A stretch of DNA of 39,653 nucleotides from a virus. Taxonomy: Duplodnaviria; Heunggongvirae; Uroviricota; Caudoviricetes. Location: positions 1-39,653 of the IMG/VR virus record IMGVR_UViG_2648501669_000023, one strand, 5' to 3'. Each line of letters starts with the position of its first letter. The first letter of the stretch is position 1. Position numbers: made by a program. Below, piece after piece: positions 33,001 to 39,000 of this stretch.

Positions 33001-36000
33001 TAAAAAAGCAGGGGTCACCAGAGTTGCAATCAGTAAAGCCGAGCAAGGCCTTACAAAAAGTTTCAACGGTGACACCCTTTTTAAAGTCGCAGCAGCACTG
33101 CAGTGTTCACCGCAGTGGCTTCAGAGCGGAGATGAAAAAGATAAGCATTGGGAAAATAATGTTAAGAGCTGCCCACAGAGAGACACAGCACACTCTTACC
33201 CTGTAATTAACTGGGTTCAGGCAGGATTATTCGCAACTGCTGGTGATGACTACAACATGTATGATCAGGATAACTGGAGGCATTCTGTAAAATACGCTGG
33301 TGAGAGGGGGTTCTGGCTGGAAGTGCACGGAGACTCAATGACTTCGCCCGTAGGAATAACATTTCCTGAAGGAATGTCGATCCTTGTCAACCCAGATAAA
33401 GAAGTTTTTTCAGGGTGTTACGTCATCGCCAGAAAAAAATCCACCAATGAAGCAACATTCAAAAAATATATTTCTGAAATGGGAAAGGCGTTTCTAAAGC
33501 CCCTTAATCCACAATATCCAATCATAGAAATGGACAATGATTGCGAAATAGTAGGTGTTGTAGTTGATGCCAGGTGGGATATTTTCTGACCAGACTCAAA
33601 ACACAAAAAGAAACCAAAGTATCAGAAATCACTTGCCACACCTTGATACCTTAGTTACCATAAAACAAAGTTCGTAACTGAGGTATCATCTCATGATCAA
33701 TAAAGCTACAACTCTTGACTGTCTTGAAGAACTGAAAAACCTCGGCAGTCTCATTACACTAATAGCCAAAGCAACGCCAGATGCTACGCTCTCTGGCGAT
33801 ATCGAGTCATGCGCAGGACTGGCATGGGATATGACAAATAGCATATCCAGAAAGCTATCGTCAGCAATGCTTTTACAGAACAAAAATTCTGCAATCAACA
33901 ACCGTCTTCGCACCCAACGCGAAGCCTGCGGCTTAACAACCGCCGAACTCGCCAGGCTGCTCGATCTCGATGAAGAAATCATCATTCAGTGGGAGAGCGG
34001 AGACTATGAACCAACTATCAGTATGCTTATCCCACTGGCAAATATTCTTGGCTGCGATCCGATGTGGCTGTTAACTGGTAAACCAACAGGTGGGGATACT
34101 TGCGCATGAAAAACTGTGATGCTTACCACATATGTCTCATTGGTGAATTGCTTGATTGCATACAAAAAAGCGCTGAGCGCAATAATAAAAATATAACATA
34201 CGGTAATCTGGCAATAATTTCAGAGGATATTAAGAGCATCGCTCTTAAATTCAAGAGCGATGCGAACATTGACGACACTATTTACGCTTATCTTGCGAAA
34301 ATAGTTGACGGATCCAAAAACCAGCCTCTGGGTGAGGACCGTCAGTAAAAAATTCATTTGATGAACATGAGAAGTGCTTCATAAAATTTACTTTATCTTC
34401 AGGTGAAACCACCTGACGAATTAATGCAGAGATAGCGACTTTGTGCCACATTAATTCTTTTTTGAGCGCTGAAATTTCTTTTTCAAGTTGCTCTTCGTTA
34501 ATCATTTTATCCTCCATTGAGAGCTGAATTGTAAATGGAGACCAACACGCGGCTACGTGTGGTCGTGCGCCGGACACGGATAAGCATCCGGTGACTAATT
34601 ATCAATCATTGAGGAAACAGTCTCAATATGAAAACACTTCTGGGACTCGCTATATAGCAGAACATATAAGTCAGCTGAGGAAGCCATGAAAAAGTTCGAA
34701 AACATAACCGTTCTCCATGTTGATGACTTTGATTATACAAACCCGGAACTTCTCCCGGAGGTTGTAAAGGCAATAGATGTTGCCGATATAGTGATTAGAG
34801 GAAAGAGAATTGTCAAAAACAGGCTCGCATGCACTTCAGGAGCAATGACAGAAACAACCTCACAACAAGATCATTATGAAGGCATTTGTCTGGAGCCGGA
34901 CTCATTTGCGGTAAATGTTTATCATTTATTGCATGCAACACAGGTATTACATATGTCAAGTAATCACGAAACAAAAACACTTGGCAGCGAAATTCTGAAT
35001 TTTACATGTGAATATGCAAAAACTGCTGCCGAAAAAGAATTAGCGCAATAACAATAAATATTCCCTGAATGTTTATTACGGTTTTATCGCCAGGGATTGT
35101 TGCAACCTTTATTCGCAGGAGATTATGTTATGACTTTCCTGAAACATAAGGCATCGTATAAAACTGCCTGCCTCATTGCACAACATGGAGATTCTTATCT
35201 TCATATAGCCAACCTGTATTTGCGCAAAGCATATGGGAGATAAGTCAATGGAAGAAAAACAACAAAACATAACACATAAAAAAGTAAGAGTGTTGCTAAC
35301 CATTGAAAATGGTGAAGTAATTTACTCAAAACATCTGTTGGATAATGAATTCGTTGGCTGCATGGATACATTTCTGTGGATGGCAAAAAGAGCGGGTTAC
35401 ACGATTATTCCACCGGCAAAGGAGCAAACATTATGAATCATTCAGAGTTCCGACCAGAAGTTACGCCACATGGCATAAAAATTGGCAATACAACCATTGA
35501 TTATGTTGAGGCCGTACAGCGGCTTAATGATGGTGAATACGATTATCCCAACACACACGGTTTAAGCATTCTCCAGTGTCTGGCAGAAGCCTATGAGTCC
35601 GGGATTTTAGAAAACTGTTCTATCGATATGAAGGTTGCACAGTGGCGCTGGCTGTATGTAACGGTATTTATTAATGAAGAGGAGTATAAGAACGGCACCA
35701 TTGATATCCCTAACGATAACGGAACTACAGATCGCGCTGTTATTTATAAGGGGAAGCATGGTTGCATGAGTATATACCCAGGACCACTTCGCATTGCCCT
35801 GCAAAACCATGTCGAATGGGGATTTATTGAAAAATATGGCGAAGCTGAAGGCATGGGGCGAGTTCTGTTTCTCTATCAAAAAATGCTCATCGCAGATCCT
35901 GATAATGGTTTCATTGTCTCTGCTATGGGGCGCGAAGGGCTTGAACTCCTTCTGGATGAAATGATTAACGACCTGAATACTCATAGTATGCCAGAAGCGC

Positions 36001-39000
36001 CAGTGACACATTAAATATTAAGAAGAATATAATTCTTCCGTTTTTTACTAACCGTTTGTATGAAAAGCAACCGTGAATTAAACAGAGTAAAACTGATTTT
36101 AATCCTTGCCACAGTACTGACACTAACTGAAATCATTATTCTCTTTATTGTGCTGTCAGTCGGTTAAAAATATCGGGATACCACAGACCAATGAGACTGT
36201 ATTTCACAATAGTAATTTTACTGGCAATTATCGCATGTATTTACGGATTACTTGTTCCGTTCCTTATATCCATGAAGGATACGATAGCAGTTATTTCTGG
36301 CTTTGCACTGGCGTTTCTGACCCCGCCCTGCATTTATGCCATTTACAAGGGTCTTTCTTTCACTAAGGATAAAAGATGAAAAAAATTATTTTTGCTTTAG
36401 CCATTGTTCTGCCGACTATTGGCCTTGTCGGTTGCGATCGCGTTGAACCAGGTAATGTTGGCATCAAGGTAAATAAACTGGGCGACGACAAAGGCGTCGG
36501 TGAGGTGGTCGGTGTTGGTCGCTACTGGACTGGCTGGAATACTGAAGTTTACATCTTCCCCACCTTCAAGCAAATGAAGACCTACGATGAACCGTTCAGT
36601 TTCCAGATGAGTGACGGTACAACCATCGGCTATCACATTGGCGTGGCCTACAAAGTTGATCCATCCAAAGTTACCACGGTGTTTCAGACCTACCGCAAAG
36701 GCGTGGATGACATTACCGACACCGACCTGCGTCAGAAGATCGCCGACGCACTTAACCGACTGGCCAGCAAAATGACCACCGACAAATTTATCGACGGCGG
36801 CAAGTCTGAACTGCTGGATGCTGCTCTTAAAGACATTCAGGAAGAAATGACGCCCATCGGTATTCAGGTAATGAGCCTCTCATATGTGGGTAAGCCGGAG
36901 TATCCGCCAACCGTTCTCGACAGCATTAATGCCAAAGTCACGGCGAACCAGAAAACACTGCAGCGCGAGCAGGAAGTTAAACAGCGCGAAGCGGAAGCCA
37001 ACATGTTGCGCGCGGAAGCTGCCGGACAGGCAGATGCGATTCGCACAAAAGCCCAGGCTGAAGCCGATGCTATTCGTTTACGCGGTGAAGCTCTGCGCCA
37101 GAACCCCGGTGTTATGGAGCTGGAAGCCATCAATAAATGGAACGGCACACTGCCGCAATACATGACCAGCGGCGCCAGTACACCATTTATCCAGGTTAAA
37201 TAACTTATATGCCCGGCAGGTCGCCGGGCTAAGGGAAAAGCAGATGAACACCCATAATGCCCAACCGCAAATAATGAACTATGACCCGAATCTGACGTCA
37301 TGCGGACGCATGACAAAACAAACCGTTCGATTAACTTTCGGGTTATGGGAATACCGCGAAACATTCGAAGTTACTGTCGGCGGCAATCTGACCGGACTGG
37401 ATGTTATCAGTTGCGCTATTGAAAGCCTGTACGCAACACTGCCTTACGAAGAAGTCGAGGATGAGCGCACAGGGGGAACAGATATCATGGCCACCATTAA
37501 TATTGGCGAACTGATATGTCAGGATGAAGACCTGTCCGGAGAACTCTGGCTTGCCGGGATGCTTATCTCAGCAGAAATTATCAGTATTGAACCCGCTACA
37601 AACATACGACTCTGAAGTTCTCACTATTCAGAGAGCAGGAGAAAAAATGTTCGCTTTGATTAATCAGGGACAACTGTATACCGACAGTGCCGGTTACCCG
37701 GTAAAAATTATTCGCTGCATAAATAACACTGTGTTGTACAGAAGAATGGATGGGCGAACACAGTCGGTAAAAATAAACGATTTTAATGAACTGTTTGAAC
37801 GGCTCGATCACCAGGAATACCGACAAATTCTGGCAGAAACAGAACAGGAAACTCATCTGAAAAAATTACGGGCCATGAAAAGGAAATAAAGAATGAATAA
37901 AGCGTTTGAGCTATGGGTACGCCAGCGTTACGGCAATCGCTATGACCTGACGCGAGATGTTGACGGTTTCTACTGCCGTGAAATTGTGAAACGAATGTTT
38001 GAAGTGTGGTGCCACTGCCGTGGGCTGAGTGTTGTGTGAGGTAATGCATGGGCAATGTGATTCAACTGGCTCCCAATGAATGGGTTTGTGAAAGCGTTCT
38101 TATCGCAATTACCGGGCTCAAACCAGGCACAATTCTCCGGGCCCGGAAAGAATGCTGGATGGTAGGAAGAGAGTATATTCACGTATCGCCTGACGGTAAT
38201 CCAAAACCTTCCAGCGAATGTATGTATAACAGAAAAGCAATCGATGCCTGGGTCGCTTCAATGAAAAACAAACAACCTGGGTGATTTAATACCATGAAAT
38301 ATGTAAGCTCATATCGCTCTTGGGCGTCTGGAGGTATCGATGGATAAAGTCAAATATCCAACAGGCGTCGAAAACCACGGTGGCACATTACGCATCTGGT
38401 TTAATTTTAAAGGTAAACGTGTCAGGGAAAATCTTGGTGTCCCTGACACTGCCAAGAACAGGAAGATCGCCGGAGAGCTGCGGACATCTGTATGTTTTGC
38501 CATTCGTACAGGAAACTTTGATTACGCTGCGCAGTTCCCTGACTCTCCTAACCTCAAGGCTTTTGGGGTAAATAAAAAAGAAATTACGGTGAAAGAACTT
38601 GAAAAAAAGTGGCTGGATCTGAAACGCATGGAAATCTCTGCAAATGCATTCAATCGCTATGAGTCCGTTGCAAGAACAATGATTCCGAAAATTGGAGGTA
38701 GCAGACTGGTGTCAACGGTGACCAAAGAGGAATTGCTGTATATCAGGAAAGATTTGCTGACCGGATATCAGAATTCAACGAAAGACAAAGCACCAGCAAG
38801 AGGACGGAGCGTCGTTACTGTAAATTATTATATGACGACAATCGCTGGAATGTTTCAGTTTGCTGCAGATCACGGTTACTTAGAAGCAAACCCCTTCGAG
38901 GGAATTAAGCCTCTTAAAAAAGCCAGGGCAGAGCCAGATCCGCTAACTCGTGACGAATTTATTCGCCTGATAGATGCTTGCCGGCATCAGCAAACAAAAA

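Follow-up and report, generated by a model that had tools for sequence, protein, structure and literature searches.

What do the small AT-rich genes between the immunity region and the integrase of a Shiga toxin-converting prophage contribute to the phage, and do they behave as one system? The question is raised by the viral record IMGVR_UViG_2648501669_000023 (39,653 nucleotides, all of which were analysed and are here called the window), in which a first-pass annotation described three co-oriented genes of 121, 62 and 193 amino acids (aa), here g1, g2 and g3, as a candidate uncharacterised three-gene system, possibly exclusion, defence or anti-defence cargo. Our analysis confirmed that observation in part and gave partial support to its interpretation. 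The main outcome is a correction of the gene map: a fourth gene, p37, lies between g1 and g2, the linked block is p37-g2-g3, and g2-g3 form an exchangeable cassette. The family of g3 is highlighted as structurally unassigned, and no new mechanism was revealed. The genes belong to families that are already catalogued as hypothetical, and the region is ordinary in kind, consisting of lambdoid early-operon accessory genes.

The cluster contains four genes

The three open reading frames (ORFs) are present on the plus strand as first described, between cI and xis/int (Table 1). The interval 34686-36014 is AT-rich, with a GC content of 40.3% compared with 48.3% across the window. An ATGA overlap couples g2 and g3 translationally, and both genes have good ribosome-binding sites (GGGAGA for g2, AAGGAG for g3). 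Pooled ratios of nonsynonymous to synonymous substitution rates (dN/dS) against distinct homologues were well under 1 (g3 0.20, g2 0.26, C-terminal half of g1 0.35, N-terminal half of g1 0.51), and the exact proteins encoded by g1, p37, g2 and g3 each recur on many public contigs, always labelled 'hypothetical'. On this sequence evidence, g1, g2 and g3 are genuine genes under purifying selection rather than chance ORFs.

The 196-nt 'gap' between g1 and g2 holds p37, which had been missed. This gene encodes a basic peptide and has the lowest dN/dS in the cluster (0.17). Its exact sequence occurs on 460 contigs and it is present in 35 phage records, being annotated in phages Stx2_EH2201 and PhiR49_2. 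In a Citrobacter metagenome-assembled genome (L006 2688-3083), a 92-aa ORF upstream of p37 is joined to it in frame, so that the product has 131 aa. At two further Citrobacter loci (L008 4369-4760; L011 4607-4994), a G run separates the p37 frame from that of the upstream ORF, and could be either a sequencing error or a frameshift site.

The same genes are found in the same order and context in phage phiP27 (NC_003356; P27p08, P27p07 and P27p06), with protein identities of 97.5%, 100% and 87.6% to L08, L07 and L06, respectively. The phiP27 record annotates longer forms of L07 (67 aa) and L06 (212 aa), but alignments of homologues and the Prokaryotic Genome Annotation Pipeline (PGAP) favour 62 and 193 aa. 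In that record p37 is unannotated, and no function is assigned to the cluster there either.

Table 1. Positions of the cluster genes, their neighbours and putative regulatory sites in the window
Feature	Position	Strand	Details
cI	32930-33589		Upstream flank of the cluster
Copies of motif GWWWCYNARGTATCA 3' of cI	33610-33624, 33644-33658, 33674-33688	+, -, +	
PL-like promoter-like site	33633-33661		TTGCCA-17-TACCAT; overlapped by the middle motif copy
HTH138 (phiP27 L10)	33693..34109	+	XRE-type helix-turn-helix regulator; Pfam HTH_3, E 5.9e-11
orf82	34106..34348	+	Small gene, start overlapping the HTH138 stop; PHROG 23054, E 1.8e-48; dN/dS 0.31
orf75m (phiP27 L09)	34278..34505	-	Convergent; PGAP coding sequence; PHROG 20080
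orf75m leader, structured, ~90 nt	34503..34596	-	Conserved; folds at -30.8 kcal/mol, z -2.7
g1 (phiP27 L08)	34686..35051	+	121 aa
p37	35130..35243	+	37-aa basic peptide, isoelectric point (pI) 9.8; AGGAG 8 nt upstream; stop 4 nt before the g2 ATG
g2 (phiP27 L07)	35248..35436	+	62 aa from ATG
Exchangeable cassette (g2-g3 and downstream spacer)	35244..36199	+	Mosaic junctions at both ends; comparison with the E. coli S14 prophage
g3 (phiP27 L06)	35433..36014	+	193 aa
xis/int	38048-39653		Downstream flank of the cluster

p37, g2 and g3 are inherited together, without g1

If g1, g2 and g3 were one system, they would be expected to travel together. Among E. coli-type viral contigs retrieved via g3, 78 of 80 carried the C-terminal domain of g1 (g1C) followed by p37, g2 and g3. 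We compared alleles across 66 distinct identity profiles, expressing identities relative to the window. p37, g2 and g3 fell into two allele classes with no mixed locus: class A (p37 at least 95%, g2 at least 81% and g3 at least 84% identity) and class B (p37 70-81%, g2 40-53% and g3 65-70%). The alleles of g1 paired with either class, in one direction at L016 and L077 and in the other at L025, L039, L047-L049, L060 and L063. Between the classes g2 is about 50% identical, yet the backbone flanks are 97-99% identical.

Wider sampling gave the same picture. At 12 species-level loci outside Escherichia retrieved via g3 (from Rahnella, Yersinia, Citrobacter, Phytobacter, Atlantibacter, Pantoea, Raoultella and Providencia), g1 was absent from all 12, g2 was present in five and p37 in about six. 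Among 105 g2-centred viral contigs of Klebsiella/Citrobacter type, the dominant layout was p37-X-g2-ParE_like-Y-g3; g3 was present in 69, mostly in this layout, and missing in 36, and g2 directly abutted g3 in none. The allele classes, the species-level distribution and the g2-side sampling thus break the proposed g1-g2-g3 unit. Translational coupling links p37, g2 and g3, which are transmitted as a single allelic block, whereas g1 is a separate gene that recombines independently. What stands of the original description is that the genes are uncharacterised and lie between cI and int.

The block is a trimmed form of a six-gene train

The 72-aa protein intercalated on the g2 side is Pfam ParE_like (PF24732; E 1e-17 to 1e-18 at loci L097 and L009). 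X, ParE_like and Y correspond to PHROGs 1737, 1525 and 1886, all of unknown function. The six-gene train p37-X-g2-ParE_like-Y-g3 is widespread in temperate phages of Enterobacterales, and those of Klebsiella, Citrobacter and Salmonella carry the p37, g2 and g3 homologues in the same order as the window. Unlike these trains, the window lacks X, ParE_like and Y, and its g2 abuts g3 directly. Given the dominant layout on the g2 side, the block in the window is therefore a trimmed train.

An E. coli S14 prophage shows where the exchange takes place. DNA homology to the window (92.7%) breaks off precisely at the p37 stop (35243) and picks up again at 36200, and S14 holds X-g2'-ParE_like-Y where the window holds g2-g3. 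This alternative cassette was seen at L097 4347-5500 (E. coli S14) and at L009 157-1009.

ParE_like next to g2' suggests a toxin-antitoxin-like remnant, in which the toxin would have been lost from the window and g2 kept as its orphan partner. Most of the 105 g2-centred loci have ParE_like next after g2', so that g2' takes an antitoxin-like position, and at L009 and L097 the two genes overlap at the ParE_like start, an antitoxin-toxin-like arrangement. However, the window has no ParE_like gene, g1, g2 and g3 have no Pfam match, and g2 remains under purifying selection without a ParE_like neighbour. Moreover, of the 12 species-level loci, four or five have a ParE_like gene with no g2 directly upstream, and the predicted model of g2, one beta-hairpin and one helix, resembles neither a DNA-binding fold nor a known antitoxin fold. 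We regard a remnant of this kind as very improbable.

Family membership and predicted folds

All three genes gave full-length matches to PHROG hidden Markov models: g3 to PHROG 1515 (E 3.8e-91), g2 to PHROG 340 (E 4.5e-24) and g1 to PHROG 5451 (E 5.7e-82), with the C-terminal half of g1 also matching PHROG 4587. These four PHROGs are all of 'unknown function', so membership is uninformative on mechanism. Scans of Pfam, NCBIfam and PADLOC returned nothing for g1, g2, g3 or p37, and sequence and profile searches of the PDB with g1, g2 and g3 gave nothing below E 0.09. In PADLOC-DB 2.0 no family was matched at E up to 0.1 by g1, g2, g3, orf75m, orf82, or the downstream membrane peptide (mem62) and SPFH genes; the neighbouring HTH138 alone was matched, by generic helix-turn-helix (HTH) models. 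No Rfam RNA family was found in 34200-36400. Thus, the absence of recognisable motifs remarked on in the first-pass annotation holds for Pfam, NCBIfam and PADLOC but not for PHROG, and the remote-homology and structure-prediction check that it proposed gave no function-giving match for g1, g2 or g3. The literature on phiP27, early left operons and ParE-like prophage genes yielded no functional study of these genes.

The g3 family comprises 65 clusters at 90% identity and 132 representatives at 50%; its members are about 190-220 aa long throughout and, where the taxon is named, come from Enterobacterales only. The g2 family is much larger (at least 556 clusters). The g3 protein is acidic (pI 4.7, net charge -15) and its predicted structure is mixed alpha/beta, with a predicted local distance difference test score (pLDDT) of 89.9 and a predicted template modelling score (pTM) of 0.85. 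A Foldseek search of BFVD with this model returned nothing at E up to 0.001, and the PDB contains no analogue of the predicted fold. As judged from the model, g3 represents a structurally unassigned family.

Homologues of g3 in several Klebsiella phages (MF695815, MK416014, MN166823 and others) are labelled '2-polyprenylphenol hydrolase / flavodoxin oxidoreductase'. We found no domain or fold backing for this label: neither g3 nor 14 homologues contain any Pfam domain, and thus none of the FAD- and NAD-binding oxidoreductase domains that the label implies, the predicted g3 fold has no such analogue, and a 15th homologue, the 1347-aa P0219, has disparate partial Pfam matches only. Faint precomputed tags on some homologues (PF17345 and PF27490) were not reproduced.

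g1 resembles part of a neighbouring regulator allele

Where g1 starts is ambiguous. In the PGAP annotation the gene begins at the ATG at 34845 and encodes 68 aa, about one third of related loci have the C-terminal domain only, and Stx1a/Stx2a phages carry this domain alone as a stand-alone gene. At least 21 distinct variants keep the 121-aa frame open. Residues 69-115 of g1 align with residues 24-70 of an alternative HTH-regulator allele from a near-identical prophage (47% identity, E 2e-11), and g1 has a further match in the N-terminal part of PHROG 4836, 'CII-like regulator'. Compared with the window's own HTH138 and orf82, g1 showed no significant similarity, the alternative regulator allele being the only one to match. 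The C-terminal domain of g1 thus appears to be a free-standing copy of the N-terminal domain of the neighbouring HTH-regulator allele, and g1 might pair or compete with the CII/DicA-like HTH regulator whose domain it copies.

A terminator-like hairpin with a trailing T-run occupies minus-strand positions 34742-34759, inside the 5' portion of g1 and immediately upstream of the orf75m promoter, where it could protect orf75m from antisense transcription.

Position in a putative repressed early operon

When would these genes be expressed? With at most one mismatch allowed, the window contains seven matches to the 15-bp motif GWWWCYNARGTATCA, where 0.26 would be expected. Three of these come from two sites in the cro-cI interval (32871-32909), one of which matches on both strands. 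Three more copies lie 3' of cI (Table 1), and the seventh match stands alone at 7813. Of the copies 3' of cI, the middle one overlaps the PL-like promoter-like site, and an inverted repeat spans 33644-33688. The motif is likely to be the operator to which CI would bind, and the motif pattern marks 33610-33688 as a putative leftward operator/promoter. Beyond it the gene order is HTH138, orf82, orf75m (minus strand), g1, p37, g2 and g3. No match to the motif was found upstream of or near g1, no plus-strand promoter-like site met the scan criteria in 34578-34685 before g1, and no plus-strand terminator-like site was found between 33660 and 36014. A hairpin after g3 (36022-36038) was considered as a terminator and rejected as insignificant (-4.9 kcal/mol, z -0.57). 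The cluster therefore has the structure of early-operon genes, co-oriented between a putative repressor-controlled promoter and xis-int without a strong promoter or terminator of its own. In Stx2_EH2201, which has no orf75m, the regulator, g1C, p37, g2 and g3 form a compact string in which neighbouring genes either overlap or are separated by no more than about 80 nt. Because operator-like motifs and a promoter-like site are found 3' of cI and none before g1, the cluster is most economically read as part of a repressed leftward early operon rather than as lysogen-expressed cargo.

We estimate a probability of roughly one half that this is a stretch of the leftward early operon of a phiP27-like prophage carrying four small accessory genes, g1, p37, g2 and g3. 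Transcription would most likely start at the repressor-controlled promoter 3' of cI and run toward xis-int, so that the cluster would be shut off in the lysogen and its products made early, once the phage is induced or infects a cell. Because the products are small and have no catalytic motifs or enzyme signature, they would most likely be binding proteins acting stoichiometrically on phage or host partners, with p37-g2-g3 perhaps forming a host-directed or lysis/lysogeny accessory module. The accessory genes of the lambda PL operon include kil, cIII, gam, ral and the ea genes. Like these, the cluster genes are small, non-structural, mosaic and co-oriented between the leftward operator/promoter and xis-int; unlike these, they have no sequence or fold similarity to any of that set. 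The phiP27-type region also differs from lambda in having no recombination genes and in beginning with an HTH regulator instead of N.

Several points weigh against this early-operon reading. The operators were assigned from a repeated motif only. Read-through from the PL-like promoter to g1 would have to cross the convergent orf75m, which has a strong promoter-like site and whose transcription might block it. A weak plus-strand candidate promoter (ATGAAA-17-TATATA, 34628-34656) was spotted by eye. A role as binding proteins is deduced from size and missing catalytic motifs. Finally, the deep divergence of p37-g2-g3 within nearly identical flanks also fits arms-race cargo, either defence or counter-defence.

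Defence was the role first suggested, as a lysogen-expressed defence or superinfection-exclusion system of three genes. The genes are AT-rich, lie between immunity and int, have no assigned function and are tightly coupled, all of which agrees with such a role. Nevertheless, the cluster matches no PADLOC model, lies beyond the operator-like sites 3' of cI and has no scan-criteria promoter before g1; g1 is unlinked to g2 and g3, and the products lack the ATPase, nuclease and membrane domains usual in defence systems. Its position also differs from that of the lambda rexAB type, which lies between cI and the leftward operators in the cI transcription unit, whereas the cluster starts about 1 kb beyond the operator-like motifs. 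Lysogen-expressed defence is accordingly improbable.

Counter-defence is the reading that the deep divergence of the block keeps alive. Here g3, alone or with p37 and g2, would be made early and inhibit a host anti-phage system or nuclease; lambda Gam and Ral act by such inhibition from the same operon position. The putative early-operon position fits, as do two deeply diverged allele classes in near-identical backbones, the swapping of g2-g3 as a cassette, the acidity of g3 and a predicted g3 fold without known analogue. However, we found no sequence or fold similarity to known anti-defence proteins, and the acidity of g3 is not extreme, neighbouring proteins having a similar pI. We hold this explanation to be possible though unlikely. 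Equally speculative is a broader version, in which p37-g2-g3 and the parent six-gene train would be an unrecognised early-expressed counter-defence or host-takeover module built around g3, with allele classes arising from a host arms race.

The orf75m leader and the dicF-dicB slot

The best promoter-like site in the region (34626..34598, 10 of 12 matches) precedes orf75m. The orf75m leader is predicted to fold into three hairpins, the last of which pairs with the Shine-Dalgarno site, and matches no Rfam family. It is about 87% identical in most of 1018 query-matching E. coli genomes, despite differing flanking coding sequences. In O157:H7 SS52 the leader aligns about 250 nt upstream of dicF-dicB. 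The slot directly 3' of an orf75m-type leader, taken by g1-p37-g2-g3 in the window, thus holds the dicF-dicB module in Qin-like prophages.

This positional analogy keeps alive a Kil-type host shut-off, in which one product, for example the basic p37, would block cell division or another host process. Unlike the dicF-dicB module, however, the window has no DicF RNA (absent from the Rfam E-value scan of 34200-36400) and no DicB-like protein, since none of the cluster products shows similarity to DicB or to any Pfam family. Position alone is weak evidence in mosaic phage operons, and we give host shut-off a slim chance.

Prophage context and neighbouring genes

The window is a phiP27-like Stx2e-converting prophage integrated at yecE. 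The toxin genes stxA2e/stxB2e lie at about 20.3-22.3 kb, and together with two tRNA genes (22276-22349 and 22454-22526, minus strand) they are 99.9% identical to phiP27 (window 20300-22600), which identifies the window as an Stx2e-converting prophage. Both Stx2e- and Stx2a/Stx1a-converting prophages of pathogenic E. coli carry the cluster genes, and phages of Klebsiella, Citrobacter and Salmonella have related trains. If the genes influence induction, host physiology or competition between phages, they would therefore bear on the biology of toxin phages.

HTH138, the first gene past the PL-like promoter, matches PHROGs 4739 and 4836, the latter a 'CII-like regulator'. After g3 come a membrane-peptide/SPFH lipoprotein pair, DUF5406, DUF4222, xis and int. 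The pair, directly 3' of the cluster (36191-37203), consists of a 62-aa membrane peptide (PHROG 1130) coupled to an SPFH/Band-7 lipoprotein (PF01145, E 8.8e-31), and is 97-100% conserved across loci with deeply differing p37-g2-g3 alleles. Elsewhere in the window, a C4 antisense RNA (84 bits) adjoins isrK (63 bits) on the minus strand at 29985-30173. Such a C4/isrK pair constitutes P1/P7-type RNA control, which is usually tied to antirepressor genes.

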